A DNA stretch of 64,000 nucleotides from Candidatus Poribacteria bacterium. GTDB taxonomy: Bacteria > Poribacteria > WGA-4E > JAJDTR01. The notes beneath the pieces are model-generated. The model did no database searches. It saw only the letters and a program-made list of their open reading frames with translations, and was not told the origin of the DNA. Below, one piece after another: positions 1,046 through 63,045 of the stretch. The stretch's first letter is position 1, and the number at the start of each line of letters is the position of its first letter. The translations under genes were made by a program, and so were the position numbers. The stretch spans positions 1,984,001-2,048,000 of the forward strand of contig CBDCTK010000002.1 in the NCBI GenBank assembly GCA_965222225.1, written 5' to 3'.

Positions 1046-1579
1046 TAGAAATGACGGTCAAGCGTTGTTACGTTGAAAACTATATTCAGCACGCAAAGCA
1101 TACCATACTCACGCAACAGAATTATCAAGAATGTCCGCACACAAGAGAGACAATGTTTGTTTTCGTTTCAACGAGGTTGTGGATGACGCGGTTGTCGGAG
1201 AAAACCGGCTCTCAGCGATGCGGATAGTATAGCGCGCCTCGTGCGTTATGTAAAAACTTACCTTTCGGCGGTAATGGCGTGGAATCCGGGGATCGCTGCG
1301 TACGGCTGCAGGGCACAATCGGTCTCGGAGAATGGCGTTGACGGGTTAAAGAATTCCTATCGATCAACTGACCGAATAGGGAAGGCGATAGGAATTCTTG
1401 CTCGCTGTAAAATCTCTATCGCACTCGCTAATCGCTCGCTTGACTGGCCGCGACCGGGAGAGGGAGCTCTATCGCAGTCATTATCCATTCCTTTGATCCT
1501 ACAAGAAATGGTGGGCGGCGCCCACCCTACAGGAGCTCTATCGCGCGGGATTTGCCGCGGGAATCGGTGCGGACAGAGT

Positions 1580-1601
1580 CGGGGCAAGATGCCCCTCCTA
1601 C
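1580..1601 (-). repeat. REP family B (CGGGGCAAGATGCCCCTCCTAC)
   Basis: Imperfect palindrome ending CCTAC (GTAG on minus). Copies near 21600 and 35218; interrupted copies near 3222, 7634, 9853. Confidence 0.75.
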
Positions 1602-1982
1602 GGTGTATTTGTTTGTATCCAGCGAGAAGAACGGCGGTGCAGGATGCGCACCTTACAACGGCTAAAGGGCGGTGCGGGGGAACCTTAGGGGATTTCTATC
1701 GCACGGGATCTACTATCGCCCTCACTATTCGTTCGGTTGATCGTTATCCATTCGTTTGATTCCCTCCTACAAATTGGTTAATCGCCCGTTGTCCAGTCGA
1801 AAAAGGACATTCTTTGTCTGGTAACTCGATTGTCATCTGTGCGATAATATGACACTGATAAGGTATTTGGACTACCCCGGATTGGTCAGATTTTCTACCT
1901 CAAGGGATTTGCTATAGGAACCCTATCCGGACTTGCTATCGCACGGGATTTTCTATCGCGGTCACTAATCGGTCGGCTGAGG

Positions 1983-2008
1983 GGTCGCGACCGGGAGGTC
2001 GCTCCTAC
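1983..2008 (-). repeat. REP family A (GGTCGCGACCGGGAGGTCGCTCCTAC)
   Basis: GTAG-ended hairpin. Related copies near 3182, 7932, 19982, 32368, 33677, 34931, 54679, 58308, 59442. Confidence 0.8.
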
Positions 2009-2054
2009 AAGAAATCATTCATTCGCTTGATCCTTCCTAGGAGAACCTGACACA

Positions 2055-2996
2055 ATGTATAGCGCTGCAAAAATCTTTGAACAGATTCCGAACTTCCCGT
2101 CCTGTCATGCGTCAACGATTGCGGAGATGCCCGACGGAGAGCTGCTTGCCGCATGGTATGCCGGATCGCGAGAAGGGGCGAAAGATGTGGCGATCTTTAC
2201 CTCCCGACGGACATACGGGGGTGAACGCTGGATGCAGCCGGAAATGGTTGTGAACACTCCGAATTGCTCGGAAGGCAACCCTGTCTTGTTTGTCGATGCG
2301 AACCGTCAGATCTGGCTGTTCTACGTTACGATGTATGGCAACCATTGGAAACAGTGCAAGATGTATTACCAGAAGTCGAGCGCGATGGGAAATAGTTGGG
2401 ATGAGAGAGGTGTTCTCCGCGATGAGTTGGGGTGGATGACGCGCAACAAACCGCTCTATCTCTCAAACGGCGAAATCTTGCTGCCGGTCTATGATGAACG
2501 CAATTGGCATTCAATGGTGATGATTTCCGGCAATGGCGGCGAGACATGGAACACGTATGGAGATTTGTCGAGCCCGAAGGGCGTCATCCAGCCAACCGTT
2601 GTTCAGCGGGATGACGGTAGTTTGCTGATGCTAATGCGCAGTCGGGATGGCGAGATTTGGCGTTCAACCTCCAATGATTTGGGACAGAGCTGGGAGGCGG
2701 CACACCCAACGGATCTGCCGAATCCCAACTGCGGAGTTGATATGGCGCGCTTGCACAATGGAAACATCGCTCTCGTTTACAATGACACACGGCGTGGGCG
2801 AACACCTCTGACAGTCGCGCTATCTATCGACGAAGGGGAAACGTGGGGATACAAACAACATCTCGAAATCGAGGAGGGAGAATACTCCTATCCCGCCATT
2901 ATTCAAGCCCAAGACGGCGGTATCCATATCACCTATACCTACCGACGCATCAGCATCATGCACGTTGAAGTCGATGAGGCGTGGATTCGCGACTAA
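2055..2996 (+). CDS. Sialidase-like BNR/Asp-box repeat glycosidase
   Basis: CHASTI start, Asp boxes (SGNGGETW, SNDLGQSW, SIDEGETW), EYSYP motif, AGGAG RBS. Confidence 0.85.
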   Translation: MYSAAKIFEQIPNFPSCHASTIAEMPDGELLAAWYAGSREGAKDVAIFTSRRTYGGERWMQPEMVVNTPNCSEGNPVLFVDANRQIWLFYVTMYGNHWKQCKMYYQKSSAMGNSWDERGVLRDELGWMTRNKPLYLSNGEILLPVYDERNWHSMVMISGNGGETWNTYGDLSSPKGVIQPTVVQRDDGSLLMLMRSRDGEIWRSTSNDLGQSWEAAHPTDLPNPNCGVDMARLHNGNIALVYNDTRRGRTPLTVALSIDEGETWGYKQHLEIEEGEYSYPAIIQAQDGGIHITYTYRRISIMHVEVDEAWIRD

Positions 2997-3085
2997 GAGC
3001 CTGTTTTGAATAATCGGTGGCAAAGCCATTTGTGGTCATTTGTAGGGAGTTTTTCATGTTTTTATTGTTGTCTGCTGCGTACCTG

Positions 3086-3363
3086 TAGGATCTCTATCGC
3101 AATGGAATCTCTATCGCGGTCGCTATTTGCTCCCTTGATCCTTCCTTAATCAGTCGGTTGATCCTCATTCAGTTGCTTGATGGTCGCGACCGGGAGGTCG
3201 CTCCTACGGGATAGCTTTAGGCGGGGCAAGATGGGATCTCTATCGCACTCGCAGAAAGGCTGGTAAAATCTCAATCAGAATCTTCTATCGCCATCACAAT
3301 GGGATCTCTATCAAGAATTCCTATCGGGATTCTCTATCGCACTCGCTATCCGCTCGCTTGATC
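3086..3363. repeat. Covarying-hairpin element cluster
   Basis: Cores at 3111 and 3334, truncated tandem copies 3141-3181, iterated GGGATCTCTATC subunits 3233-3333. Confidence 0.85.
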
Positions 3364-4146
3364 ATCCGCGACGGGCACGTATTCCGGAAAGACCTTCGGA
3401 TAACGGCGTCCGGTTGAGACCTGACGCGTTGCCGCATCAATATAGCATACACTGAATGCTCGCCGCGGACGATTCGTGGTGTTGACCTCCGAGCGGTGCA
3501 ACGTCCAGTTGTGGAGCAGCGCGACCTCTCCCATCTCCATCTCCAGATAAAGCCGCTTCTCGTTCGGTGCGTGGATCGCTCGCTCCTCGGGAGATAACAA
3601 ATCGCCTTTTTCGGGGATGGGGCTTTTGTGCGACCCCGGAATAATTTGCAGACAGCCGTTGGCGACGCTCGTCGCATCCATCGCGGTCCAGATTGTCACC
3701 TTTGGCGGAATGCTCAACCTCCAGCCGCCTGCGCCATCTTGATGCCAATTGATGGGGATCCCTCGCCCCGCAGGCTTGTTGAAGAACATCGTCCGAAAGG
3801 CGGAGATCCCCTCGCCGATAATCTTCCGTGTAATGTCCCGAAACAGCGGGTGTTGTATGTAAGGGAGAAACAATGGGTCCTGTTCAAGGTCTTGAACTTT
3901 TCGGTAGTTTAGCGTAGAACCCTTCAACACCTTTGTCTGCTTCGATAATTCCTGATGGCCGGCTGACGGGCATAACTGCATGAGCATGTTGTCGTAGCGA
4001 ATCTTCCCCAGCATGATATCATCAATACGCTGGCAAAGTGCTTTAATCTCTTCGTCCGGTGCGACTTTGCCCAAACGTACATAGCCCTGTTCCTGAAATG
4101 TCGCAAGCTCGTCGTTAGTCAAGATGGGACCGTGCAGCTTTGTCAT
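3346..4146 (-). CDS. Phytanoyl-CoA dioxygenase (PhyH) family protein
   Basis: WHQD...HRS Fe(II)/2OG triad, NGCLQIIPGSHK. Confidence 0.9.
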   Translation of the reverse strand: MTKLHGPILTNDELATFQEQGYVRLGKVAPDEEIKALCQRIDDIMLGKIRYDNMLMQLCPSAGHQELSKQTKVLKGSTLNYRKVQDLEQDPLFLPYIQHPLFRDITRKIIGEGISAFRTMFFNKPAGRGIPINWHQDGAGGWRLSIPPKVTIWTAMDATSVANGCLQIIPGSHKSPIPEKGDLLSPEERAIHAPNEKRLYLEMEMGEVALLHNWTLHRSEVNTTNRPRRAFSVCYIDAATRQVSTGRRYPKVFPEYVPVADDQASG

Positions 4147-4319
4147 CGTAGCGCCTCCTGAGAGCGTATGAGGGATATTTGGGTGTATCTACGGGAACGT
4201 GTGGAGTTGGGTTTCGCGGTGCTCTTTGGGATTTCTATCATTTGCTTGATTCCGCCTTACAACCGGCTGTTGAAAAAGGAGCGGGCGCGGAGACCGCGCC
4301 CCTACGGGGGAGGCACGAT

Positions 4320-4548
4320 CGGTCGGTCAGTTGATGATCGCGACCGGGAGGGAGGATTTACTATCGCCCTCACTATCCGTTCGCTTGATCGCTCCTACAG
4401 GGCGGGTTTAGCTATGGGATTGCTATCGCACTCGCTATCCGCTCGGTTGATCGATAGAGATCTTGATAGCAAAGAAGCAGCTGACTGATAGGGAACAAGA
4501 GTTACTATCGCGTTCGTTATCCACTCACTTGATCGCGCGCTTGATCCC
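4320..4548. repeat. Covarying-hairpin element cluster
   Basis: Cores at 4361 (inside a family A REP), 4423 and 4505, plus partials. Confidence 0.85.
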
Positions 4549-4565
4549 GTGTGTTCAATTCGGCG

Positions 4566-6443
4566 CTAGCGGGGGAAGTCCCACAACAGTATCGTGCCGT
4601 CGAGGCCCGCACTCACCAGTGTGCTGCCGTCCGAGCTAAAAACGAGGCTGCGGACCCACTCACTGTGTGCCTTCAGTGTCTTCCGGTGCGCACCGGTGTC
4701 GGCGTCCCAAAAATCGATGCTGCCGTCCGTGCCCCCAGTTGCTACTTCGCCGCCATTCGGGGTGAAAACCACACTCATGGCACCCATTTCCGGTTGAAGC
4801 GTGTGGCGATTCGCGCCTGTCTTGGTGTCCCAGAGCCGCACGGTTTTGTCGCCGCTAACGCTTGCCAGCGCGCCGCCGTCCGGACTGAAGGCGACGCTAA
4901 CGATGTCCAACTCATGCCCCTTCAGTGTGTGTAGAGGGGTGCCCTCTGCCGTATCAAATAGACGAATCGTATAGTCGTCGCTACCGCTCGCCAGCAGTTT
5001 ACCATCGGCGCTGAACGCGAGACTGGTGCGAACCGGTCGATATATGGTCATCGGTACACGTGCGGTTTCCCATTTGAGCGATTTCAGTTCCGCGCCTGTT
5101 TTGGCGTCCCACAGCGTGGCGGAACTGACGCCATCTCCGCTGGCGAACATGGAGCCGTCGGAACTGTATGCAAAGATAACGTCATCTCCGGCATCGGGTA
5201 CCAAGGTTCTCAGTTCGCTGCCTGTCATAACATCCCAGAGTCTAATGCTGTGAAAATCGTCTCCCCTCACCAATGTTTGTCCATCTGCGCTAAAGACGAA
5301 ATTGGGCGACAGGGACATATCGTGCAGAAACGAACGCTTGTATGCCCCCGTGACAGCATCCCACACACGAATGGGGGATCTTCCGCCCGCACTTGCCAGC
5401 GTCGTGCCATCCTGGCTGATAGCCACGAAATCGAACGAGTCGAGATGCCCTCCCATGCTACCCAAGTGTGCGCCTGTTGCTGTTTTCCACAGGTTGATGG
5501 TGGTACCCGCGGTCGCCATTCGCGTCCCATCGGGGCTGAACGCAATCGCGATAATCCTATCCGTATGCCTTCGCAGCGTTCGCAGAAGTTCCCCCGTGGC
5601 GGCATCCCACAATCGGGCAGAATTGTCGCTGTACCCGCACGCCAGCGTGCTTCCATCCGGGCTGAATGTCATGCACCCGACCCAAGTCTCCCAATCCTCC
5701 AGTTGACGCAGATGATTGCCGGTGCCGACATCCCACAAACGAATACTATCGCGTCCACTCCCACTTGCCAGCATCGATCCGTCCGGGCTAAATGCAACGC
5801 TCGAAATGTACTCCGTATGTCCTACCAGGGCGCGCAGATGTTCTCCCGTTGACGCATCCCATACGTCAATGTTGTTGTTGGCAAAACTCCAACTTGCCAG
5901 CATTGTGCTATTCGGGCTGAATACCGCACCTACGCCCCTAGACGACATATCTTCCTGTGTCCGCGCATCGAATGACTGTTCCTCCTCACCCGTCAAGGTA
6001 TCCCAAAAACGGACGGTATTGTCAAAATCTACGCTTCCCAGTGTGGAGCCGTCACGACTAAAAATCACGTCGATGATTCTCGACGTGTGACCCTCCAACG
6101 TGCGCAGATGCGCGCCTGTTGAAGCATTCCAGAAACGAATGGTTCCGTCCGAACTTCCACTCGCCAATACACTCCCATCCGGGCTATAGGCTAAGCACCA
6201 GACAACACCTGCATGGGCAGCGAACAGGGCGGCTTCCTTACGGTTCGATGTGTCGTATATCCAGATCCCGATGCCTGTTCCCACCGCGAGCCGAGTGCCA
6301 TCGGGCGAATACTGTATTTGGGTAATCTTACCGTTTCCAATGCGCAATCTAGCGCCGTCGGGCAGTCCCGATTGAGGGAATTCTTGGGCGGCGCCCAGTG
6401 TGGAGAGCACAAAAAGTGATAGTAAGGTCAAAAATATCTTCAT
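4566..6443 (-). CDS. Exported WD40-repeat protein
   Basis: Signal peptide, LPDGARLRIGNG start, many GH...FSPDG..LASGS.D..IRLWD repeats. Confidence 0.92.
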   Translation of the reverse strand: MKIFLTLLSLFVLSTLGAAQEFPQSGLPDGARLRIGNGKITQIQYSPDGTRLAVGTGIGIWIYDTSNRKEAALFAAHAGVVWCLAYSPDGSVLASGSSDGTIRFWNASTGAHLRTLEGHTSRIIDVIFSRDGSTLGSVDFDNTVRFWDTLTGEEEQSFDARTQEDMSSRGVGAVFSPNSTMLASWSFANNNIDVWDASTGEHLRALVGHTEYISSVAFSPDGSMLASGSGRDSIRLWDVGTGNHLRQLEDWETWVGCMTFSPDGSTLACGYSDNSARLWDAATGELLRTLRRHTDRIIAIAFSPDGTRMATAGTTINLWKTATGAHLGSMGGHLDSFDFVAISQDGTTLASAGGRSPIRVWDAVTGAYKRSFLHDMSLSPNFVFSADGQTLVRGDDFHSIRLWDVMTGSELRTLVPDAGDDVIFAYSSDGSMFASGDGVSSATLWDAKTGAELKSLKWETARVPMTIYRPVRTSLAFSADGKLLASGSDDYTIRLFDTAEGTPLHTLKGHELDIVSVAFSPDGGALASVSGDKTVRLWDTKTGANRHTLQPEMGAMSVVFTPNGGEVATGGTDGSIDFWDADTGAHRKTLKAHSEWVRSLVFSSDGSTLVSAGLDGTILLWDFPR

Positions 6444-6527: not shown

Positions 6528-6585
6528 GGGGAACTCTATCGCGCTCATTATTCATTCGCTTGATCGTTATTCACTCAGTTGATCG
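6528..6585 (+). repeat. Covarying-hairpin element plus truncated tandem copy
   Basis: Core at 6536-6565 followed by gttattcactcagttgatc. Confidence 0.85.
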
Positions 6586-6609
6586 GTCGTGTTGTGCATG
6601 GATGTTGGG

Positions 6610-7107
6610 TCAGAAACGGGGAGCGGTGAAACGAATTAGCAGACCTATTCCGACTACGACAACTAGCACCCACAGCACTATATTGCCTGTCTCTCTATCA
6701 CTTTGCTCGCGCCGCTTGTGCATTTCAATCTCCGTCCTGAGGTTGGCCATTTCCACCTCTGCATCCGCTAGTGCAAGTTTAAGTTTGGCATTCTCTTCCC
6801 TCAATTGCTTTATTGTCCTGCCCTGATTCTGTTCGCCATCTTGACCGGGTAAGCGTTTATCAGGTACCGTGGATATGGGTGTCTCAACCTTGGCGATGGT
6901 TTCAGGTATGATGTCTCCAATCTTTGGCTCGGACTGCACGTCGGCTAGCAGAACGAGACTCCAGGTGCCCAAGTAGGTGAACACACAAAACACAACAAGG
7001 ATTAGCATGAATCGCGAAGGGTACCCCTGAACGTGCATAATGTTGTTTCCTCGCGAAATACTCAGTCGCGAGACATGGGGAGAGCCTCGTATTCGTGTCG
7101 TTTTCAT
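6610..7107 (-). CDS. Hypothetical membrane-anchored coiled-coil protein (start uncertain)
   Basis: N- and C-terminal TM segments flanking a coiled coil. Confidence 0.55.
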   Translation of the reverse strand: MKTTRIRGSPHVSRLSISRGNNIMHVQGYPSRFMLILVVFCVFTYLGTWSLVLLADVQSEPKIGDIIPETIAKVETPISTVPDKRLPGQDGEQNQGRTIKQLREENAKLKLALADAEVEMANLRTEIEMHKRREQSDRETGNIVLWVLVVVVGIGLLIRFTAPRF

Positions 7108-7200
7108 AGGTTAACCCGGTTTTTGCGATTTGTCAACTGACACACCAGCATAGTCAGACACAAGTCATGTTGTATGTGTCGGTCGCTATTCATTCCCTTA

Positions 7201-7459
7201 GAGCCTGCTTGAAAAATAGATGTCAAAGCCATTCTGAAGCTGTTGAGTGCTATAATCTGTCGGTCCGCTGGGGCTTAAGTGCGTGGGGTTTCGGCGTTTC
7301 TACACACCTTCAAGATCTCTATCGCACTCGCTAATCGCTCGGTTGATCCCACTCTGGGGCTTTTAGATGCTGGTGCCCTGTGCGCACCCTACAAGAGCCC
7401 TGATGAAAACCTTGGTTTTGAGGCGAAATGTGCGACAAAATGAATTTTCAAGCAGGCTC
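7201..7459. mobile_element. MITE with IS5-family (IS1031-like) ends
   Basis: 15-bp perfect TIR GAGCCTGCTTGAAAA (7201-7215 / 7445-7459) flanked by TTA direct repeats. Related left ends near 2997 and 9559. Confidence 0.7.
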
Positions 7460-8000
7460 TTAATGGCGCGCTACAAAAACTCAAAAGCTGGTGCAGGATC
7501 TCTTTCGCAGTCATTGTTCATTCCTTTGAACGGTGCCCACCCTCCATCTTGCTCGTTTGAGGATGGTGGGCGGGTGATTTCAGCGCTACGCGAAGGATGC
7601 TAGTCGCGAAGCAGATTGTTACACGGTGGTCAGCGGGGCAAGGAGATCTCTATCGTCCTCGCTATCCGCTCGGTTGATCCCCGCCTACAGGGACGGATAG
7701 AGTATATCTGTTTGTATCTTCGGTATCCAATGAAGTTGGGTTTCGCTGTGCTCAACCCAACCTACGTCGTTGATTGGGTGTCTACCACATTGTGCTCCTC
7801 GCGAGCGCTTGAGAGAAACATGTACCCGTTCTATCGACATGGCGCACCTCCCGAGCCAGGAGTGGAGACGGTACGGGGTCGGAGGGATTTCTATTGGGGG
7901 TTCTATCCCAGTCACTATTCGCTCCATTGATGGTCGCGATTCGGAGATCGCTCCTACGGGGCGGGATTTACTATCGCCCTCCCTAATCAGTCGGTTGATC
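7312..8000. repeat. Covarying-hairpin element and REP cluster
   Basis: Cores at 7319, 7502, 7650, 7903, 7971. Confidence 0.85.
7735..7765 (-). repeat. REP family D (GTTGGGTTTC...CAACCCAACCTAC)
   Basis: GTAG-ended hairpin. Related copies near 47177, 50791, 58165. Confidence 0.7.
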
Positions 8001-8158
8001 CCCATACGGGGGATGGGATTTCGCGCCACTTTTGCTTGACTGAGACGGATTATAGTGCCATACTTCTATGGTACGGGAAACGGGAAGGATATCTGCCACG
8101 CCTAGGGGGCGTGACAGGATTCTTGAGGAGTTTCAGATAAAAAACAGTGAGGTGATTA

Positions 8159-9355
8159 ATGATGTTCACAAGTCGGATCGCAACTTTGGTTATTGTATGC
8201 CTGATTGCAGCCCCAGTTCTCGTGTTGTCCTCCTGCGATGAACTCGTGTCTATTTTGTCCGGGGGAGACATTGTCGAAGCGCCTGATGCAGTTTCTGTCG
8301 GCGTGGTTCTGCCGCGGACGGGCTATCTCGGTCCGGGCGAATTTGGTCCCGGCGCGCTTGTTATGGAGAACGGTTTTAACTTGGCGCTCGAAGAGATTAG
8401 CTACTCGCAACCCGAGAAGGCAATCCTGAAGTTCATCATTGAGGACGATCGAAGCACCGTAGACGGCGCGGTTGCCGCATTCAACACACTGATACATCAA
8501 GACAAAGTGCCGGTAATTCTCGGAGTTTGGACGTCAGAGGTTGCGCAGACCGTCTTTTCGATTGCGCAGGAGAATCGGGTTGTGGCTTTCAGTCCTGTCG
8601 TGGTAGCAGGCGGGTTGACCGAAATTGGCGACTTTATTTTTCGCGCGGCGCAACCCACGGATGTGCTTATTCCCGCGGGGGTTAAGGTGACGCAGGAGCA
8701 ACTCGGCTATCAACGGGTGGCGACAATTGCCGACTCTGACGATCATTTCGCCCGGACCAGCAGCGAAGAGCTAGAGCAGACGCTAAGTGATTCCGGCGTC
8801 GAGATATTGCAAGCCGAGAACTTCCAATCAGGTGAAACAGACTTTAACGCACAACTTACTCGCATAAAGGACGCTGATCCGGAGGCGATCTTCGTGTCAG
8901 CTCAACAGATTGAGACGATTCTAATCTTTAAGCAGGCTCGCGCACTTGGCATTACCTCCGATGTTCCGTTTATCACTGCGTCGCTGTCGTCGGACGACAT
9001 AGAAAGTGCCGAGGGGGCTGCCGAGGGAGCAATTACTTTTGCGTCATGGAGCAGCAAAACGGACACGCCGGGAAACCAAGCGTTTGTCGAGAAATACCGC
9101 GCCCGGTACGGACGGGAGCCTAGCGTATGGTCTGCGCTGTCGTATGCGTCCGTTCATATCCTAGCCGAAGCCGTCGCGAATGCCGAATCGACGGATTCAG
9201 TCGGGATTCGAGACGCTTTGGCGAATATTAGCGATTTTGACACCGTTTTGGGGCAGTTTTCGTTTAATGAGGTCGGCGACGGGGCTTACGATCCAAAGGT
9301 ACTGATCGTGAGGGATGGTAGGCTTGAGGCGTTCGGAGAAGGCGGCACGCCGTAG
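8159..9355 (+). CDS. Branched-chain amino acid-type ABC substrate-binding lipoprotein (LivJ-like)
   Basis: Lipobox LSSC, VGVVLPRTG, IEDDRST, DFNAQLTRIK, LGQFSFNEVGD. Confidence 0.88.
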   Translation: MMFTSRIATLVIVCLIAAPVLVLSSCDELVSILSGGDIVEAPDAVSVGVVLPRTGYLGPGEFGPGALVMENGFNLALEEISYSQPEKAILKFIIEDDRSTVDGAVAAFNTLIHQDKVPVILGVWTSEVAQTVFSIAQENRVVAFSPVVVAGGLTEIGDFIFRAAQPTDVLIPAGVKVTQEQLGYQRVATIADSDDHFARTSSEELEQTLSDSGVEILQAENFQSGETDFNAQLTRIKDADPEAIFVSAQQIETILIFKQARALGITSDVPFITASLSSDDIESAEGAAEGAITFASWSSKTDTPGNQAFVEKYRARYGREPSVWSALSYASVHILAEAVANAESTDSVGIRDALANISDFDTVLGQFSFNEVGDGAYDPKVLIVRDGRLEAFGEGGTP

Positions 9356-9647
9356 CGGAACGTGTTAAGTGGAGAGTGACGAGTGGAGAGTGAAACCTAA
9401 CACCTCAATCCAGGCCTAGAGTTGATTGTAAAGTTGGGTTTCACTAGATTTGAAAGGGTTCTAAACGGAATCGTGTTCCTGGAAGGGAGTGTGAGGACGG
9501 GTGTTTATGACTGCAGCCGTTCAACCCAACCTACGTGTTGACTACAACTTTCCGATAAGAGCCTGTTTGAATAATCGGTGGCAAAGCAATTTCGGTCACT
9601 TTGGGCGCGGCTTTTTCATGCTTTTGTGGTAGCCTGCTACATACCTG

Positions 9648-10021
9648 TAGGATCTCTATCGCACTCACTATCCGTTCGTTTGATCCCCGCAGGGGCTTTA
9701 GATTTGTTGTGTTGTCTTCGTTCTATAAACCTTTCGCACCTCCGGTGCTTACAAAGGCTGGTGGGCGGGGGACCTCTTTCGCACAGGATCTACTATCGCC
9801 CTCCCTAATCAGTCGGTTGATCCCAACCTACGGACCTGATGCCTATGGGGGGCGGGGCAAGAAGATCTCTATCGCACTCACTATCCAGTCGATTGATCCC
9901 CTCCTACGAGTTAGATGAGGTAAGTTCTATGGGATCTCTATCGATCAACCGACTGTATAGAATCAACTGAGCGGATGGCGAAGGCAATAGCAAATCCTGC
10001 TCATTATCCATTCCCTTGTTC
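9648..10021. repeat. Covarying-hairpin element cluster between convergent genes
   Basis: Cores at 9656, 9793, 9869, 9961-9990(-), plus partials. Confidence 0.85.
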
Positions 10022-17539: not shown

Positions 17540-17575
17540 GGATCTCTATCGCAGTCATTGTTCATTCCCTTGATC
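17540..17575 (+). repeat. Covarying-hairpin element inserted in a family C REP
   Basis: ggtgcgcag[gggatctctatcgc...ttgat]cgcaccctac. Confidence 0.85.
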
Positions 17576-19421: not shown

Positions 19422-19691
19422 TGCACGCCTTCCTTACAAGTCGGATAAATGCTCTGTCACCTTCTATTTCGTGAAAACTCTTGGGTCAACCGACGTGAAG
19501 CGAATCCCACCCAATCTCCCGTTGCGCGATTGTATCACAAAGCGTCTAGCAACGCAAACGGCACCTAATTGTACGGGATCGAGTGAACGAATTTAGGCTT
19601 GTCTAGAATTAGATTCGACCGCAAACAGATCAGGTTTTCTGTTTCCTTCCTTTTGCGCCCGTGCTATAATGACAGCGATGGGGGCTATGAC

Positions 19692-19907
19692 ATGGACAAG
19701 ACAATCATCTCGGTGGCAGTCGTGGGCGGGGGATCGACGAAAGAAATGAATCCGGCGCTGCCGTATACGCCGAAGGAGATAGCCGACGCCGCAATCGAAT
19801 GCTGCGCGACGGGTGCGGCGATTACGCACATCCACGTCCGCAACCCCGAAACCGGAATCGTGTGTTCACGGTTTGAACTCTTCCAAGAGGATCAAGCGAA
19901 TGGATAA
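19692..19907 (+). pseudogene. Truncated 3-keto-5-aminohexanoate cleavage (Kce/BKACE, DUF849) gene
   Basis: [12 protein letters not shown]...[12 protein letters not shown]...[10 protein letters not shown]. Ends after about 71 aa in a hairpin element. Confidence 0.8.
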
Positions 19908-20095
19908 TGAGCGCGATAGCAAGTCCCGCGCGATAGAAAGTTTTGATAGATATCCTCTCGCCCACCATCACCTCAGACTCGGTAGGAGCGATTTCCCGAT
20001 CGCGACCGATTGACCGACTGAATAAGGATCAAATGACCGGTTAGGGAGTGCGATAGGGATCTTTTCGCGATAGAGAATATTGATAGAGATCCCAA
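19890..20095 (-). repeat. Covarying-hairpin element cluster
   Basis: Cores at 19890-19919 and 20027-20056, iterated tails, REP near 19982. Confidence 0.85.
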
Positions 20096-21529: not shown

Positions 21530-21580
21530 GGGACTTGCTATCGCCTTCGCTATTCGCTCAGTTGATCGATAGAACTCCCA
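21530..21580. repeat. Covarying-hairpin element with inverted tail
   Basis: Core at 21538-21567 followed by gatagaactccc. Confidence 0.8.
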
Positions 21581-24713: not shown

Positions 24714-25259
24714 GGCGAATCTGGGTTGAGGTAAGGCTACTTCCGATGAGGGAACAGGATTCTATTTGTCTTATTGCCCCGCTTGTTATACTCTACAGTT
24801 TCCTTCAACGCAGCGGTAAAGGTGCGTCTCTCTATTGGTCAAAAGCATACCACAAATGCAACCGTGTTTCAAATGGAAATACGAGATCTTGTCCGCAACC
24901 ACCAAATCCCCAATGTCCTCTTTCTCCTTTGTAGGTTGGGTTTCCAAGCGCGACAATCGCTGATTTCTCCTCTTTTTGCCACTTATCCGACCGGTGACGG
25001 ACAAGTATGAACAACAATTTTTGTTTGACAGCGCCTTTGATTCTTGGCACACTATGTGCGCTACTTCAATGGCTGCATACGGCTCGCTACCCGGTGATGT
25101 CCGTCGCTCTCCAATACTGAACCATTACGGACTCCAAGTCTGCAATCTGGATACACTTGATAACTTAACACACATATAGTACAATTTGCCGAAGTGTTGA
25201 AAAGGACAAGAACACAACACTCAGTAACCAATCACTTGTGGAATGAAAGGATCAACCGA

Positions 25260-25675
25260 ATGAATAGCGAGGGCGATAGTTTTCTGACGTTGACGTGGCC
25301 AGATTTTTATCCAGCAGACTGTCCGCCTGCGGAAGCCGAATCTGCTTCCGGTACAGTTTACCGCCTTGTAAAACACGACCCGGCACGGGCAGAAGATTTC
25401 AAATCAGTCTTTGAAGAAAACCTAAGAGGAGTCAAAGAAAAGCAAACTGTGAATCTCTATGGACTCTCCGTCCATAGAGATTCACAAGACAGCGAGCGAC
25501 TACGCGAGCGACTAAAGAACAGGGCCAGAAAATTCAAAAACAGACAGATTGCGGAAGGTAGTCTAAATTCAACGCTTGGAATGATTCGACATACACCATC
25601 AATAGAGGAATCACACATACTTGGTGGGTACCTATTGGAGCGGAGCCTAGGCTTGTTTTTAACGTAATCCGGTAA
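25260..25675 (+). CDS. Hypothetical protein with ART-like R-S-H motifs (probable 1-nt frameshift near 25615)
   Basis: WPDFYPADCPP, VYRLV, GLSV; the shifted frame ends HTWWVPIGAEPRLVFNVIR*. Confidence 0.55.
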
Positions 25676-30033: not shown

Positions 30034-30140
30034 CGCGCAGGATTTTCTATCGGAGTTCTATCGCACTCATTATTCATTCGCTTGATCCCTCCTTATCCGG
30101 TCGGTTGATCTATAGAAATCCCGTGCGATAGAGTTCCCTT
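29999..30140. repeat. Covarying-hairpin element cluster overlapping the ATPase stop
   Basis: Two truncated minus copies 29999-30033, core at 30058, truncated tandem copy, inverted tails. Confidence 0.85.
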
Positions 30141-32139: not shown

Positions 32140-32330
32140 GAGATTGAGCGATTGACTAACGAGAGATTATATGACTGAATATGGAATGCGATAGAGTTCC
32201 CCTAGAAATCCCTTGTTAATTCCTACATTGCCACCTCTTGTTAAGGTTTGTAAGAGCTCGCTCATGCGAAGTATATTGCAGGAAAAGGCTGGTGGAATCC
32301 CTATCGCAGTCATTATCCATTCCATTGATC
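32140..32330. repeat. Covarying-hairpin elements and REPs
   Basis: Degenerate core 32165-32194(-); core at 32301 inside a family C REP. Confidence 0.8.
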
Positions 32331-33719: not shown

Positions 33720-33780
33720 GGGATCTCTATCGCGCTCCTTATCCAGTCGCTTGATCTCAGTTGATCGTTCGGTTGATCCC
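33720..33780 (+). repeat. Covarying-hairpin element with two truncated tandem ends
   Basis: Core at 33727 then tcagttgatc and gttcggttgatc. Confidence 0.85.
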
Positions 33781-34969: not shown

Positions 34970-35410
34970 GATCAAAGGAGTGAGTAGCGACTACGATAGA
35001 GATCCCCTGCCCACCATTTCTTGTAGCAATCGAGAGCGATCGGATAAGGAGCGTTCAACTGAGTGATTAACGAAGGCCATAGAAGATCTTGATAGAGATC
35101 CCATCGCGACAGAACTCCCGTGGAACTCCTCCCGGCCTTTGAAAGCGCCAGCGGCGCGACAGGTGTATAGCGCGCCATTATTCCGTCAGGGATAATGGCG
35201 CGCTATAGATAAAACGTCGGGGCAAGATGCCCCTCCTACATAAAAATGTAAGGCAGTGCCTATTCTACATATCTATCAAGAACACTCTTTCAAAGCTAGT
35301 CATAGAGCGAAAGATGAGTGTTTCTTGCTGAAAGAATCATTCCGACAGGAACGATGGTGTGCTATACACCTTCGGGATTTCTACCGCACTCGCTATTCGC
35401 TCCCTTGATC
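34970..35410. repeat. Covarying-hairpin elements and REPs
   Basis: Cores at 34970-34999(-), 35053-35082(-), 35381. Confidence 0.8.
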
Positions 35411-40644: not shown

Positions 40645-40682
40645 GATCAAATGAGCGAATAGCGAATACGATAGGGATCTTC
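40645..40682 (-). repeat. Covarying-hairpin element inserted in a GTAGGGGCGGGG REP
   Basis: gtaggggcggg[gatcaa...cgatagggatct]tcccgccccgccc. Confidence 0.8.
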
Positions 40683-41942: not shown

Positions 41943-42025
41943 GATTAAGCGAACGAACAGGGAGCGCGATAGTAAATCCCGTGCGATAGGGATCCTAACG
42001 CGATAGAGCTCCCATAGAGATCCCT
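41943..42025 (-). repeat. Covarying-hairpin element with iterated tails inside a family A REP
   Basis: gtaggagc[gattaa...gcgatag + tails]ctcccggtcgcgacc. Confidence 0.8.
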
Positions 42026-52639: not shown

Positions 52640-52715
52640 GGGATCTCTATCGCAGTTGTTATTCACTCCTTTGATCCCACCCTACTATCGCCCTCCCTAT
52701 CCGGTCGGTCGATCG
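52640..52715 (+). repeat. Two covarying-hairpin elements, the first inside a family C REP
   Basis: Cores at 52647 and 52685. Confidence 0.85.
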
Positions 52716-53995: not shown

Positions 53996-54070
53996 GAGTT
54001 CTATAGGACCTCTATCGCACTCGCTAATCGCCCATTTGATCTGCCTTGACCGTTATTCACTCGCTTGATC
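53996..54070 (+). repeat. Covarying-hairpin element and truncated copy
   Basis: Core at 54012; partial gttattcactcgcttgatc. Confidence 0.8.
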
Positions 54071-54758: not shown

Positions 54759-54858
54759 CTATCGATCAGCCGACTGGATAAGGGGGGATCAAGCGAATGA
54801 ATAATGAGTGCGATAGAACTCCCATAGAAAATCCTGCTCGCTATCCGCTCGCTGGATC
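54759..54858. repeat. Covarying-hairpin element cluster
   Basis: Core 54787-54816(-) with truncated copies on both strands. Confidence 0.85.
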
Positions 54859-55969: not shown

Positions 55970-56025
55970 AAGATCTCTATCGACTTGGGATCTTCTATCG
56001 CGCTCATTATTCATTCGCTTGATCC
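55970..56025 (+). repeat. Covarying-hairpin element
   Basis: Core at 55995 preceded by an extra tail. Confidence 0.85.
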
Positions 56026-56030
56026 TTGCA

Positions 56031-57131: not shown

Positions 57132-57222
57132 AGATTTCTATCGATCAAGGGAGCGACCAGCGACTGCGATAGCCAATCCCGCGCGGATAGCCCATCCTGC
57201 TCATTGTTCAGTCGCTTGATCC
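57132..57222. repeat. Covarying-hairpin element cluster
   Basis: Core 57143-57172(-), inverted tail, truncated plus-strand copy. Confidence 0.85.
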
Positions 57223-57225
57223 CGA

Positions 57226-58255: not shown

Positions 58256-58349
58256 ACGTAATTTACTGCACGTCTTCTGTAGGTGCGAGCTCTGCTCGCG
58301 ATAAGAAGTCGCGACCTGGAGATCGCTCCTACAAAGACCCATACCTGTC

Positions 58350-58422
58350 GGGATCTCTATCGATCAACTGAGTGGATAGCGAAGGCGATAGAAAATCCTA
58401 CTCGCTATCCACTCGTTTGATC
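58350..58422. repeat. Covarying-hairpin element cluster overlapping a PhyH stop
   Basis: Core 58362-58391(-) and a truncated plus-strand copy to 58422. Confidence 0.85.
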
Positions 58423-59238: not shown

Positions 59239-59496
59239 CTTAATGCCTCCAAATTACAGATTATTGAAAATCGACTTAGCATGTCTACTGCTCAAGCCAA
59301 CAGGCAGTCAATAAATACCTGTGGTAGCAGGTATGAAACCTTTTCTGAAGCGGAATCCGGTTTTCCAAGTGGTTTGCTTGATAAGTGTTTAATGCAAGTC
59401 AAGAGGTCGAGACCGGGCGACTGCTCCTACAGGGACGCGCAGGTCGCGATTCGGAAATCGCTCCTACCAGTTAGCGTAAGGCGGTTTACGGCACAC

Positions 59497-59534
59497 GGGG
59501 GTTTCTATCGCACTCCTTATTCAGTCGCTTAATC
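59497..59534 (+). repeat. Covarying-hairpin element
   Basis: Core at 59505 (TTAATC variant). Confidence 0.8.
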
Positions 59535-59553
59535 CTACTACTTTGAAACGATG

Positions 59554-60405
59554 TTACCTAGGTTTCTTTATATGTGCCCACGTTGTGACGAGTTTTCCGG
59601 GCGTAGAAACGGCTAACGTATCAGCCAATCCCTCCTCGGTGAGTTGTTGGAGATCTTCCTCGGACAGCGCAACCTTAAAGACGGCAACATCGTCTACCAT
59701 GCCGTCCAAATAGTGTTCGTCACGTGGTTTTGCCGTTCTTCCAATGTTTAGGGGCGCCCCTTTTGCATTTCCTGCCTTGATCGAGGTCGTCCAGTCTTTC
59801 TCGCCAATCAGTTTTCCGTCATAGAACATCCGCATTTTATTTCCGCTACGTCCCATCGCGTAATGATGCCACTCCATATACTTATAGCGCCCAGGGACTT
59901 GGGGGCCCATATCTGTACCACCGCCGCCGCCGCCGCCGCAACCGATACAAAAATGAAAATATAATTGTTCGCCGGCGCAACAATGCCTTAACCTAAACCA
60001 CCATCCATCCCAGAATACCGCATCCAAAAGTGCAGATGTGTAGCCCATGATGTTGTAACGTCTGTCTTTTCCTCGTTGGTCCATAAGGACGTAGGCAGCG
60101 ATGGTAAAGTCATCGTCTCCAAATGCCCAAGCATCATTGGCGTTCGGCACCTCGACATAACCATCCTCGCCGTCCAGCACTATGCCGCCGCCAAACTTCC
60201 CCTTTCCCCAAGTGGCACCGCCCTTGAGTGTCGCAATGTTCCCATTACGGCTGAGATCAACACTTCGCTTTCCTTCACCCTCATCAAAGCTCAACGCGAC
60301 TACGGCGCTCCTGATATTTATCTCGGCATCGCCGGTTTCCATCATCAGACTGAAGGAGGCAATTGCCACAGTTACCATGAGTGACGCAATAGTTAGACAT
60401 TTCAT
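59554..60405 (-). CDS. Exported LamG domain protein
   Basis: FDEGEG, GKFGG, FTIAAY, WHH, LDGMVDDVAVF; C-terminal AVSTPGKLVTTWAHIK. Confidence 0.85.
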   Translation of the reverse strand: MKCLTIASLMVTVAIASFSLMMETGDAEINIRSAVVALSFDEGEGKRSVDLSRNGNIATLKGGATWGKGKFGGGIVLDGEDGYVEVPNANDAWAFGDDDFTIAAYVLMDQRGKDRRYNIMGYTSALLDAVFWDGWWFRLRHCCAGEQLYFHFCIGCGGGGGGGTDMGPQVPGRYKYMEWHHYAMGRSGNKMRMFYDGKLIGEKDWTTSIKAGNAKGAPLNIGRTAKPRDEHYLDGMVDDVAVFKVALSEEDLQQLTEEGLADTLAVSTPGKLVTTWAHIKKPR

Positions 60406-60833
60406 TGGTTCACCTCGCCAAATTACGGTTCGTTCCCGTATGCCTTCATGTGCTTCGGTCATTTCGAGGACGAACCAGTGATTAAATGTATAGAGATTCA
60501 GCAAATGTAAAGTGCTAACGCGAACGGCAACATGCCTGAACAAAAAGTGAAAGCAGTTGGAGCGGAAATAAATACGGCTCTTCCCAAGAAACCGTGTTGA
60601 AGAAATCGATCCCCACTGCTGCTGAATTCACGTGGCTTGTCTCCAAAAACTCGGGGTTTCAAGTGATTTGCACTTAATCTTGACATGAACTTGCAATGGT
60701 TCTCAAATTTACGATGTTACATTTTATCACGTCCTTACGCAAAACCGCAAGAAGTACCAACATTCCATTCGACCCACGAACCATAATCGCCGAAATGACC
60801 GATGTTGCGCACCATCTTGCGGTCACGTATCGC

Positions 60834-62642
60834 TTACTGCACCGGCAGTACCTGAGAGGCGATAAACCGTTTGACCTCGTGCATTGGTGCACCCCCCGAT
60901 TTGAGGTGTTCCCGTTGGAAGAAGGGGTACTTGCTCTCCGCGGCTTCGTCGTCGGATTCGCGCGGGGTGATATCGACTACCGTGTTGCCCCGCAACGACA
61001 CGGTGTAGCGGGTGCCGCAGATGGTATACTGTTCGGTGGTCTCCGGCACCGGAAATTCGACGCGAATCTTCTCGCCACCGGCAAGATGGTCGAACAAAAT
61101 GTTATTGCCGACACGGTGCAAACCAATCGCCTTATCCTTCACGTAACAGGCAAGCTGCGCTACGTCGATCCACCTCGGGAGCCGCACTTGAACTGCCCTG
61201 GCTTGCTTGTTATGGATGGCGACCTTGCCTTGGAAAGGCAGGTAACTGTGGATGTCCATCCACGGCGCCGCCCGATTGAGGAGCATATTCACGGTGGCTA
61301 CGCCGTTGGAAAATCGCGTTATGCCTTCCCACGCGGTATATAAAGCGCGGTTCCCGTTGGCGGTACAGCATCCAAAAACGGAGGAATGCGGGTTCACGAG
61401 TAGCTTTGCTTGCGTGAAACCGCCCAGAAATTGCCGATGCACTTCATCGTATGCGTCGCTGCCACAGGCACGCCGCATGCGCTCTATATCCGTCACCTGT
61501 AATTCCACGAAATGGTTGCGAACGATGCTGTCTATGTCATCCCAATAGTCGCCCAGCCCGGCATCCGTGAGTCGAATCGCGAGAATCAGCGTATCCGCAA
61601 CCCCGCAGCCTTCATTCTGCTCCAGACTCCACTCTGCATCCCTTCCCATCATCGGCTTGATCCAGCCGGGCATGAAGCCTAGCCGAATGACGCCGTGGCG
61701 ACGTGCATGTTCGTAGCCTTCCCGGACAACTTGCGAGAGCGCTGAATCGTTTTCGGTAAGGGCAAAATGTAGAAGGGTTTCCAGGAAACCCATATTCCCG
61801 TGGAAATGTCCGGTAAACTGACCATGTTCATGCGGCGGGACGCTCGCATCGTCAGCCTCATGGCTCCAGAGCGCCGGCTTCAGGCAAAACTTGATTAGCT
61901 TTCGTGCACAAGCGAGCGCCTCTTGATCACCGGTCATTTGGTAACACTGCACGAGTGCCTTGATCGAGCCAGAATGCTCAAACTTGACAGTGCCTTCCTG
62001 TCCCTGCGAGTCGTGTATCGGTTCGTCGGGCGGCGAGTAGGGGAGATATCCGGGTGCGTCGCCGCTACCACGCAGCGTCCAACGCCACACGCCTGACGGA
62101 TCCAGGCTGCATTCAGGGGGGATATAGGCGTACTCACCACAGTCAATCGATGCTCGTTTCAGCCCTCGCCACAGTAGGTGAAGCCAGGGCATCCACAAAT
62201 CTTCGCCGTCAAGCCCGTGTCGCAACGCCAATGCCTGCGCCAATATACCGTTGAACATCGGGTAGGACGTGTTAGGCGGGGGGCCATCGCCACTAATGGG
62301 ACAATAGAGCAAACCGTCCGCTTGAATTTGCTTGAGGAATGCCCTCCACGCTTCGGTCTCCACCGCGAGATTTAGATCGCTTCCGCACATTAACCGGATG
62401 AGCGGCAATGTCCGTAGGAACTTGGGTGTCAGCCAGTTAGGTGGGCCAATCATTGGCGGCTGATGGCTGAAGCGAAATGTCTGCGTTATGGCATAGCCTT
62501 CGTCGGGGCGGAAATTCGTCAATGCGTTAACAGCTAGCGCCGCGCGTTCCGCCAAATCGAGCGTATCGGGGACGGTAGTCGTATAGTGCTCGCCGGGCGG
62601 GGCAGCAATGGCGGGTTCATGATGATTCGTGGTTTCTAGCAT
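60834..62642 (-). CDS. Hypothetical (alpha/alpha)6 protein, GH127-like
   Basis: VPDTLDLAERA, GHFH, NEGC, GCCTANG motifs. Confidence 0.65.
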   Translation of the reverse strand: MLETTNHHEPAIAAPPGEHYTTTVPDTLDLAERAALAVNALTNFRPDEGYAITQTFRFSHQPPMIGPPNWLTPKFLRTLPLIRLMCGSDLNLAVETEAWRAFLKQIQADGLLYCPISGDGPPPNTSYPMFNGILAQALALRHGLDGEDLWMPWLHLLWRGLKRASIDCGEYAYIPPECSLDPSGVWRWTLRGSGDAPGYLPYSPPDEPIHDSQGQEGTVKFEHSGSIKALVQCYQMTGDQEALACARKLIKFCLKPALWSHEADDASVPPHEHGQFTGHFHGNMGFLETLLHFALTENDSALSQVVREGYEHARRHGVIRLGFMPGWIKPMMGRDAEWSLEQNEGCGVADTLILAIRLTDAGLGDYWDDIDSIVRNHFVELQVTDIERMRRACGSDAYDEVHRQFLGGFTQAKLLVNPHSSVFGCCTANGNRALYTAWEGITRFSNGVATVNMLLNRAAPWMDIHSYLPFQGKVAIHNKQARAVQVRLPRWIDVAQLACYVKDKAIGLHRVGNNILFDHLAGGEKIRVEFPVPETTEQYTICGTRYTVSLRGNTVVDITPRESDDEAAESKYPFFQREHLKSGGAPMHEVKRFIASQVLPVQ

Positions 62643-62871
62643 ACGGTTTTATGCCTTCTACAAGGGTTGGCTATTTAGCTATTCCTGTATTAGTGGTTTT
62701 CTCGCCGAGTGAATAGGGTAAGTGTTGGGTGTCGGTAGCTAACATTGTCTGAAGTGTGATTCATGGGATTTTGGGATTACCTTGATTGTAGGCGTTTAGT
62801 GGTTTATTCGCTAAGAGAGGATACGATAAAGTGTTCAGTTGCCAGTAGTGATTCTCCAGCCAACCCCCTTA

Positions 62872-63045
62872 GGGGAGTTGTATCAGGAACTCCTATCGCA
62901 GTCAATGTGGGATCTCTATCAGAATCTTCTATCGCGCGGGATTTACTATCGCACGCACTATGGGATTTGCTATCGCCTTGGGATCTCTATCGCGGTCGTT
63001 ATTCACTGCCTTGATCTATCCGCTCAGTTGATTGGTCGGTTGATC
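62872..63045 (+). repeat. Longest concatemer of tails plus core plus truncated hairpin ends
   Basis: About 7 RRRRYYYN-CTATC(GC) subunits, core at 62987, two truncated TTGAT ends. Confidence 0.85.

Follow-up and report, generated by a model that had tools for sequence, protein, structure and literature searches.

Background

In the cyanobacterium Nostoc, the small dispersed repeats (SDRs) SDR4-6 were reported by Elhai et al. in 2008 to be maintained in structure by compensatory changes rather than in sequence, and the SDRs of the Nostocaceae are said to measure about 21-27 nucleotides (nt). The mechanism by which repeats of some tens of bases move has been open since that time. Of SDR5, which is 21 nt long, it is stated that the function 'remains unknown' (PMC13756078), and according to PMC5861425, SDR-like repeats were not found outside the Nostocaceae among HIP1-rich cyanobacteria. 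Other hairpin-forming repeats are the canonical repetitive extragenic palindromic (REP) sequences, described with a GT[AG]G tetranucleotide 0-2 nt 5' of the foot of the hairpin and a basal stem of 7-20 fully paired nt (PMC6006769), and the REPINs, for the hairpins of which compensatory changes have been described (PMC3116915). Here we describe a repeated element found in a 64,000-nt stretch of DNA, hereafter the window, from a Candidatus Poribacteria bacterium (GenBank assembly GCA_965222225.1, contig CBDCTK010000002.1, here C2, positions 1984001-2048000; the genome, G000, comprises 5.70 Mb in two contigs with 49.8% G+C). Each copy holds a small hairpin with free stem sequence and conserved shape, and with a length of 35-36 nt it ranks among the smallest apparent mobile elements of bacteria. 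The Poribacteria family constitutes a second case beside the cyanobacterial SDRs, in another phylum, and is a tractable one, given several closed genomes, a sharp unit length, one fixed joint and a measurable strand bias.

Structure and abundance of the element

On the strand as written, a unit consists of an 8-nt prefix, the head CTATCGC, a hairpin body s1-TC-s2-TA-s3-C-s4-TC-s5, in which each s is a variable dinucleotide, and a terminal TTGA, and it is situated directly 5' of TC(G/C). Of 708 copies, 687 continue after TTGA with T and 635 with TC, followed mostly by GC or CC. The prefix upstream of CTATCGC, GGGATYTN in the genus of G000, is less conserved. The pattern proposed in an earlier note, which was based on the letters of the window, CTATCGCNNTCNNTRNNCNNTCNNTTGAT, has 25 exact matches there on both strands and none in 100 dinucleotide-preserving shuffles of it. 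Allowing up to two substitutions gives 43 copies (25, 13 and 5 with 0, 1 and 2 substitutions; 30 on the + strand and 13 on the - strand) ranging over 1363-63015, in agreement with the about 40 copies that the note had counted over this span.

Throughout the genome the pattern has 689 exact copies, and an expression for the body alone finds 1038 hairpin bodies, 479 of them distinct and 712 preceded by CTATCGC. At the 18 constant positions, 702, 240, 108 and 74 sites have 0, 1, 2 and 3 mismatches, compared to 0, 0, 0 and 3 for the pattern read backwards as a control. The free positions, on the other hand, take 279 distinct stem/loop combinations among 708 copies, the outer and inner stems being linked into subfamilies (Cramer's V 0.37, p = 8e-61), and the commonest hairpin body is present 52 times. 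This distribution of mismatches, the 279 combinations and the linkage of the stems are what would be expected of a population of copied elements filtered for the fold and the fixed contact bases, and not of de novo fold-back synthesis. The family furthermore offers a natural library in which one non-canonical DNA fold is represented by about 280 sequence variants.

Most copies are single or in direct orientation, since 349 of 600 clusters are single copies and 64 of the 251 multi-copy clusters contain both orientations, and inverted doublets of the REPIN kind are thus not the repeated unit. A 23-nt headless body directly following TTGATC occurs 102 times genome-wide, and a tandem array with a 38-nt period is found at C2:1578200-1578760, where the stems differ between units yet are compensated. 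The motif is no artefact of one assembly, because the same pattern is present in the genomes of 14 other species, with 139-1046 copies each, and in short-read contigs of four studies, the contigs spanning window copies without differences (e.g. record 6 of X1, 6547-7412).

Relation to known repeats

The SDRs, represented by SDR5/HIP1, are the closest known kind, and we rate the Poribacteria element as a case of this kind in a new phylum. Both are tens of nt long, too small to encode protein and highly repeated, both nest in other repeats, and the structure of the element is kept by compensatory changes, as is said of SDR4-6. SDR5 is moreover described as inserting precisely within GCGATCGC, and the element inserts at GA^TCGC or CTA^TCGC (^ marks the point of insertion), a GATC-centred word. 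The likeness is one of kind; the phylum is however a different one, and HIP1 is not enriched in G000. To our knowledge, a tandem G.A grammar, a unit of 35-36 nt, a fixed joint paired with a loose one and a replication-strand bias have not been reported for repeats of the SDR kind. The earlier note had not recognised any described family, and this holds in so far as Rfam 15 gives no match at gathering score on either strand of the 64-kb window, but should be qualified by the resemblance in kind to the Nostoc repeats. Among the papers listed in literature searches for Poribacteria together with REP, REPIN, REP-associated tyrosine transposases (RAYTs) or dispersed repeats, none mentions Poribacteria.

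Like the REP/REPIN-RAYT systems, the element is intergenic, occurs in hundreds of copies and would form hairpins in single-stranded DNA (ssDNA), and indeed the genome also holds several canonical GTAG-REP families with RAYTs of their own. However, the element is without GT[AG]G and has instead GATCAA 5' and GCGATAG 3' of the hairpin, invariant in 25 of 25 window copies; its stem is made up of four covarying pairs in two 2-bp blocks split by GA/GA; its stem sequence varies freely, while that of REPs is conserved in each family; and no cognate RAYT flanked by the element, that is no REPtron, was seen around the Y1 genes of G000 and of 30 loci in other genomes. With the insertion sequences (IS) of the IS200/IS605 family it shares strand specificity, a hairpin apparently recognised by shape, a link to replication and seamless insertion 3' of a short word without target duplication, and an IS200-type TnpA is encoded in G000. 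In contrast to these, it has one hairpin rather than two subterminal ones and one imprecise joint, and the active strand of such insertion sequences is expected on the lagging-strand template, whereas 372 of 536 single-orientation clusters have the hairpin strand of the element on the C-rich strand. In addition, TnpB (PF07282) has no match in the genome, and the flanks of the G000 Y1 genes contain no full-length IS with ends matching the element, the IS200-type tnpA being flanked by REP1. Judged by defining features, the element thus belongs neither to the canonical REPs or REPINs nor to the IS200/IS605 miniatures.

Covariation in the hairpin and the functional strand

A hand count of 41 window copies in the earlier note had s1/s5 fully Watson-Crick in 24 with a further 9 off by A.C alone, s2/s4 in 32 with a further 5, and no G.T on the written strand. 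This is nearly reproduced in the 43 copies, where s1/s5 are fully Watson-Crick in 26 (plus 9) and s2/s4 in 33 (plus 5), with a single G.T among 172 cells. In the 1038 genome bodies, s1/s5 are fully complementary in 61.5% compared to 12.9% with partners shuffled (maximum 15.4%) and s2/s4 in 73.8% compared to 17.3%, while combinations of non-partner dinucleotides are complementary at or under chance. Furthermore, an unbiased mutual-information (MI) scan of 667 distinct copies, each taken with 14 nt of flank on either side, ranks the four predicted pairs at the top with 1.25, 1.12, 0.84 and 0.45 bits; all others have at most 0.28, apart from one pair of adjacent flank positions with which the fourth pair ties.

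The functional strand was proposed to be the complementary one, GATCAA-NN-GA-NN-G-NN-TA-NN-GA-NN-GCGATAG, and this assignment is supported. On that strand 93% of cells pair in the window copies compared to 61.9% after shuffling, and at 25 loci of other Poribacteria, which gave 47 distinct copies, the figures are 97.9% and 61.2%, none of 500 shuffles reaching the observed value in either set; the 47 copies were aligned by fitting to the model, which favours it, and contain G.U 18 times and non-pairs 4 times. Controls in which the pairing was slid give 23-61%. Where the CTATCGC head is present, 302 cells have A.C on the written strand and 32 have G.T, the excess being concentrated at the outermost and the loop-closing pairs; about a fifth of the copies have a wobble at terminal pairs, and common stem variants are chained by wobbles (AC/GT in 67 copies, AC/GC in 147, GC/GC in 125). 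Replication-linked cytosine deamination on the G-rich strand predicts the opposite asymmetry, and we therefore interpret the observed one as selection acting on the complementary strand, on which A.C becomes a G.T wobble.

Written in full, the functional strand is GATCAA-s5'-GA-s4'-G-s3'-YA-s2'-GA-s1'-GCGATAG. A pyrimidine precedes the two GA steps in 79% and 76% of 708 copies and a purine follows them in 75% and 80%, and around the G...A of the loop the same Y-GA-R rule holds in 99%. Tandem G.A pairs are sheared in the context 5'-pyrimidine-GA-purine-3'. In DNA, GA-AG tandem steps have been described as stacking unusually strongly and CT mismatches as very weak (PMC8163305). The G.A pairs of the element are accordingly best regarded as putatively sheared, and the folded form may be ssDNA or RNA. 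Nearest-neighbour folding with RNA parameters predicts the fold in 442 of 687 GA strands (mean -1.40 kcal/mol) and in 24 of 687 written strands (mean -0.17). Since the fold would be marginal alone, a protein partner for the hairpin seems likely. The grammar is in any case explicit, consisting of four free pairs, tandem G.A in Y-GA-R context and a G.A-closed loop, each of which can be mutated singly. An outer stem GGGATC/GATCCC was considered as a further conserved helix and rejected, because the prefix and the downstream flank do not covary in the MI scan.

Target sites and mobility

Candidate units were removed in silico and the flanks checked for rejoining into an intact element. Excision of a 36-nt unit (8 nt, CTATCGC and the body to TTGA) restores an intact element in 27 cases, compared to at most 12 with a 35-nt unit and at most 6 with other lengths, so that units of 36 or 35 nt and headless bodies of 23 nt are to be set against the 21 nt of SDR5. 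The nested sites of the 27 cases are TAT^TC in the loop (14), s1^TC (9) and TTGA^T (4). Because excision rejoins an intact older copy, we can conclude that new copies enter older ones seamlessly, without duplication and just 5' of TC. An empty-site look-alike elsewhere in the genome is available for 86 of 687 copies, and these comprise the REP3 loop (GGAGA^TCGCTCC), the REP2 loop and arm, REP1 and the head of the element itself (CTA^TCGC). The target word is thus N^TC(G/C), with nesting in own copies, the own head, REP1, REP2 and REP3, and on the hairpin strand the element sits 3' of (C/G)GA without target duplication. The two joints are unequal, TTGA|TC being fixed and the prefix side loose. 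Among 581 prefix-plus-head sites, 343 have an intact body and 80 a body with 1-3 substitutions, 74 are broken by another copy within 20 nt, and 84 are of other kinds, many of them also broken.

Comparison between species is in agreement with recent movement at individual sites. The exact copy at 3334..3362 (+) has an orthologous site that is empty in four of the seven species compared; beside window position 3362, three species are filled with one, two or three bodies ending TTGA^TC(A/C)TCCG, and the empty allele of the other four is the bare N^TCATCCGCG. The copy at 3111..3139 (+, one substitution) has the outer stem GG/CC and is directly followed, after TTGATC and with a 23-nt period, by a headless body at 3141..3162 (+), while its orthologue in the nearest species, G005, has AT/AT and is without the following body, the flanks being about 85-88% alike. 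Alignment of 400 kb of G005 with G000 gave 323 alignments of at least 400 nt with 72 gaps of 15-90 nt, 14 of which hold the element, as additional sequence in G000 (11) or in G005 (3), although some of these alignments pair paralogous repeats and not strict orthologues. One of the gaps is a seamless 36-nt insert at GTTGAA^TCGCT without duplication. The seamless nested insertions and the filled and empty sites between species support the suggestion that this is a structure-recognised micro mobile element. Joints seen in contigs of four public runs were considered as traces of excision and discarded, since they link different copies and are assembly-graph effects. Much of the intergenic space in some Poribacteria genera consists of such nested micro-insertions, which bear on the assembly, binning and alignment of uncultured sponge symbionts.

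Occurrence among Poribacteria

A search of 176 genomes of the phylum gave a match to the pattern in 21 and none in 155, the latter including most of those of the same order. As to the other Poribacteria genomes that the earlier note wished to see searched, the pattern is found in all 10 of 10 species genomes of the own genus, with 443-1046 copies each, and in 4 of 4 genomes of one genus belonging to another family, with 139-164 copies, while the backwards pattern gives 0 throughout. High numbers are confined to these two genera, and the remaining matching genomes have 17 copies (G066, genus g6), 5 copies (G146, genus g9) and, in five cases, 1-2 copies. The genera of G066 and G146 are otherwise without the element, and their copies could stem from transfer or from mis-binned contigs; the patchy distribution as a whole could likewise reflect transfer among co-resident symbionts, loss or binning errors. 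A scan of a genome contig collection found at least 80 loci, and all of the matches listed are metagenome-assembled genomes of Poribacteria, while a viral contig collection gave 0 pattern matches.

Orientation relative to genes and replication

On C2, 881 of 1036 copies lie outside crude open reading frames (ORFs), which cover 81% of the contig. The orientation of the element shows no bias relative to neighbouring genes (304 vs 285 co-directional contexts and 146 vs 146). When C2 is divided into 49 bins of 100 kb, it is however correlated with GC skew (Spearman 0.50, p = 3e-4), as opposed to -0.01 for gene orientation, and several of these bins are extreme, with 14:60, 2:35, 1:34 and 39:8 copies in the two directions. 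The bias by which single-orientation clusters mostly have the written strand on the G-rich strand and the GA hairpin strand on the C-rich strand (372 of 536) is also apparent from the cumulative orientation curve, which follows the cumulative skew curve, with dnaA at the skew minimum. Since the element is C-rich on its written strand, it cannot cause the skew. In 400 kb of G005 the rule is kept in 6 of 8 bins of 50 kb and not in the other 2. The copy density along C2 is uneven, from 0 to 74 per 100 kb.

The GC skew of C2 changes sign many times, with cumulative maxima at 0.82 and 3.22 Mb and a minimum at about 2.4-2.6 Mb, where dnaA is located, and a second DnaA-like match is found at 602775-603212. 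The repeated changes of sign could be due to rearrangements or assembly joins.

Y1 transposases and other candidate enzymes

The genome has six matches to PF01797 (Y1 transposase) at E <=0.1, besides a truncated RAYT in the densest repeat region. One of them is an IS200/IS605 transposase by NCBIfam (65.8 bits, cut-off 55), and the rest fall under the cut-off of the REP-associated family, with the exception of the truncated RAYT; the flanks of one Y1 gene are free of repeats. The earlier note had suggested a search for a RAYT/Y1 or reverse transcriptase gene distributed together with the motif; no Y1 subfamily is confined to the two element-rich genera, and reverse transcriptase (PF00078) gives one weak match of 27.5 bits at C2:4500547-4501089 (-), in a 679-aa open frame. 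In a search for a Y1 gene flanked by inverted copies, inverted flanks were not enriched, since among 73 crude genes with copies within 250 nt on both sides the copies have the same orientation in 46 cases and are inverted in 27. The one close relative without a Y1 match, G010, has only 2 element copies, which is compatible with dependence on a Y1 enzyme and nothing beyond that.

Three of the Y1 loci were considered as the cognate enzyme and rejected. The IS200-type gene (RAYT1), a single copy at C2:3080255-3080728 (-), has inverted REP1 copies (CTATACACCTGTCGCCCCGCTGGGGCTTT) on both flanks, an arrangement kept in at least 4 genera of the order (loci L023-L038; protein identity 65-91%), and REP1 flanks it in all genera, including those without the element. 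The truncated RAYT at C2:1545570-1545977 (-) is reduced to its C-terminal half, the N-terminal part having been overwritten by repeats, and lies within the densest element region (74 bodies at 1.5-1.6 Mb), but GTAG-REP2 is the repeat that flanks its full-length relatives in sister genomes. The C-terminal Y1 fragment at C2:3560268-3560543 (-) is found directly downstream of a glycosyltransferase-like gene and between inverted element copies, but intact relatives of 193-225 aa in sister genomes have GTAG repeats of their own. Some of these intact relatives contain repeat-derived insertions inside the gene. A further Y1-like frame at C2:3088937-3089269 (+) has REP3 flanks (GGTCGCGA...GGAGATCGCTCCTAC) and one in-frame TAG, which may mean either a pseudogene or read-through.

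Mechanism

We propose that the element is a structure-recognised ssDNA micro-transposon, non-autonomous and moved in trans by a Y1 enzyme of IS200 or RAYT type, and we would give this reading about an even chance of being correct. The recognised form would be the complementary strand, 5'-TCAA-NN-GA-NN-GAATA-NN-GA-NN-GCGATAG-prefix'-3', and in the fold that this strand may adopt as ssDNA, 2+2 Watson-Crick pairs would stack on a tandem sheared G.A step and on a loop closed by G.A. The shape of the hairpin, together with the fixed unpaired bases, would be read by a protein that joins the element 3' of (C/G)GA on the hairpin strand, without target-site duplication. The HUH Y1 transposases of the genome, that is the IS200-type TnpA or the RAYTs, are candidates for such a role in trans, probably at or near replication forks. 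If only copies that still fold are copied, shape would be kept while sequence is free, and the family would therefore drift over all allowed stems by way of G.T wobble intermediates.

A number of observations weigh against this reading. As for the enzyme, the flanks of the six G000 Y1 genes and fragments link none of them specifically to the element; where Y1 flanks hold repeats, in G000 and at 30 loci of other genomes, these belong to other families (REP1-REP4 and others), and the element is present beside Y1 genes solely as an insert within other repeats. Y1 genes are furthermore found in 34 of 41 relatives and the element in 15 of the 41. As for the element itself, its single hairpin and the lack of a GT[AG]G foot set it apart from REPs and from IS200/IS605 ends, and its fold energy is marginal. 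DNA parameters predict almost no fold, a result that we do not count against folding, on the assumption that tandem G.A has no term of its own in these parameters. The MI scan shows no covariation between any position of the element and the target flank, and there is thus no sign of guide-target pairing. The prefix differs by target, being TGGGARYT after CTA and (G/A)GGGATCT in REP loops, and by genus, being RRAAGA in the second genus. Insertion into a head moreover loses the following GC, a truncated head precedes 46 of 74 pairs of new copy and headless body, and one head insertion in the comparison of G005 with G000 has a net gain of 34 nt, as expected from +36-2. No excision or circular form can be read from the contigs of public runs, which break at repeats.

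The strand bias likewise points the wrong way, since the hairpin strand is preferentially on the leading-strand template, and the active-strand bias described for IS608 and ISDra2 is the opposite (PMC6006769). In 8-kb loci of other genomes, orientation is furthermore unrelated to skew (51, 51, 41 and 41), although skew at this scale is taken to be dominated by gene content. Hairpin-dependent deletion occurs on the lagging-strand template, and the bias could reflect loss of copies whose stable strand is exposed there, or else insertion into nascent lagging-strand DNA. The latter leads to a more specific version of the proposal, which we consider speculative and rather unlikely, namely a one-ended single-strand transfer into nascent lagging-strand DNA that also underlies the SDR5/HIP1 insertions. 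The 5' end of the element would be joined exactly to a 3' end at ...(C/G)GA, and its 3' tail would be re-annealed and then extended by polymerase, and it would follow that the TTGA|TC joint is exact, that the opposite joint is sloppy with 1-2 bases lost, and that the hairpin strand is on the lagging side, the reverse of IS608. If true, it would imply a general class of shape-coded micro-transposons of 20-40 nt.

The loose joint may however also be taken to favour repair over a clean strand transfer. An alternative without any transposase, which we likewise regard as unlikely, is site-directed nicking at ...GA^TCG... by a nuclease tied to GATC or CGATCG (restriction-, MutH- or methylation-linked), followed by templated repair in which copy-choice or microhomology brings in a copy from another locus. 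This would account for the loss of 1-2 nt and the target-dependent prefix at the imprecise joint, for the fact that the fixed joint makes GATC (TTGA|TC, 635 of 708), and for favoured targets (GA^TCGC of the REP3 loop, CTA^TCGC of the head) that are halves of a HIP1-like word, and directed cutting at HIP1 has indeed been put forward for the precise insertion of SDR5 (PMC4390886). The nested targets AC^TCGT and TAT^TCGT are however no GATC sites before insertion, GCGATCGC is not enriched in the genome (117 per strand against about 86 expected), a strand-specific hairpin that tolerates G.T is left unexplained, and no candidate nuclease is at hand, none having been sought.

That orientation follows a replication-related skew and not gene direction, taken together with the intergenic placement, might also suggest that the element serves the host, as a site for a hairpin-binding protein with replication polarity that is kept for the use of the cell. 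The near-invariance of the constant positions, perfect at all 18 in 702 copies, and their conservation between two families of the order fit such a DNA structural signal. A function of this kind is nonetheless quite improbable, as it is in poor agreement with the 155 of 176 genomes without the element, a copy number that ranges from 139 to 1046, the very uneven density, orthologous sites that differ between sister species, and the nesting of copies within one another and within other repeats, by which the older copy is often destroyed.

The notion that the element acts as RNA stems from the G.U tolerance and the covariation, which suit RNA as well as ssDNA, and from the better fold obtained with RNA parameters. 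The transcribed GAUCAA...GCGAUAG strand would then offer a 2x2 G.A internal loop for protein binding or stability, or serve as the template of retro-insertion, for which the reverse transcriptase-like ORF could be invoked, and contigs of one RNA library do cover parts of the region. It is nevertheless very doubtful that the element works in this way, since orientation is unbiased relative to flanking genes and follows GC skew in place of gene orientation, the window gives no Rfam match at gathering score, the reverse transcriptase match is single and weak, and the contigs show neither the strand nor the ends of a transcript.

Finally, the synthesis of one arm on the other as template, so that complementarity is remade at each event, was raised in the earlier note and would explain why the G000 and G005 orthologues differ at all four outer-stem positions yet pair (GG/CC and AT/AT), but it is extremely improbable and we reject it, because templated copying would not leave the conserved opposition of TC and TC (GA and GA) in place, and abundant wobble intermediates, present at terminal pairs in about a fifth of copies, as well as stems linked into subfamilies with a top body occurring 52 times are expected from the copying of whole elements.

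Copies within the window

In the following, the coordinates of copies are those of the 29-nt core of head and hairpin. The outer stems cited in the earlier note are as claimed for the exact + copies at 1469..1497 (AG/CT), 1713..1741 (CC/GG), 4505..4533 (GT/AC), 6536..6564 (GC/GC) and 21538..21566 (CT/AG), as well as for the AC/GT copy at 9656 and the GG/CC copy at 3111, while the AT/AT copy it placed at 40645 does exist but is situated at 40646..40674 on the minus strand, with one substitution. Further exact copies on the + strand are found at 4361..4389, 7971..7999, 9793..9821, 9869..9897, 17546..17574, 30058..30086, 32301..32329, 33727..33755 and 55995..56023, and on the - strand at 1363..1391, 19891..19919, 20028..20056, 25251..25279, 54788..54816, 57144..57172 and 58363..58391. 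Copies with one substitution are located at 1416..1444, 7650..7678, 7903..7931, 35381..35409, 52647..52675, 52685..52713, 54012..54040, 59505..59533 and 62987..63015 on the + strand and at 34971..34999 and 41944..41972 on the - strand, and decayed copies with two substitutions at 1953..1981 and 7502..7530 (+) and at 9962..9990, 32166..32194 and 35054..35082 (-).

Several copies are of interest for their surroundings. The copy at 1713..1741 breaks an older copy, the 3' remainder of which comes after it at 1739..1760 (+), where what looks like an s1 'GA' belongs to the TTGA before it, and another 3' remainder of a broken older copy is found at 6562..6583 (+). The exact copy at 4423..4451 (+) is followed by an inverted head (CGATAGAGATC), and a headless body at 30088..30109 (+) comes right after TTGATC. 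The exact + copies at 7319..7347 and 9656..9684 both lie within a REP1 hairpin, the former in a composite repeat of about 130 nt. Such composite repeats, 130-260 nt long and made up of REP1, a REP1 carrying the element, and REP2, are seen at 7200-7460, 9556-9766 and 19630-19890, and recur many times at 79-92% identity in G000 and sister species.

Inverted doublets, in which a copy is followed by a headless body in the opposite orientation, are present at 57144-57220 and 58363-58421, the hairpin bodies at 57199..57220 (+) and 58400..58421 (+) standing beside the tails of the copies at 57144-57172 and 58363-58391, and genome-wide the 7-mer AAATCCT upstream marks 14 such doublets of copy and headless body. 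The largest cluster of the genome, at C2:2705823-2707934, has 22 bodies in 2.1 kb, 12 in one orientation and 10 in the other, and is crossed by spurious ORFs. At 8127-8136, upstream of the gene starting at 8159, contigs of other samples have a 10-nt insertion (GAGTTTCAGA or AGAGTTTCAC), which is a small tandem-duplication polymorphism bearing no relation to the element.

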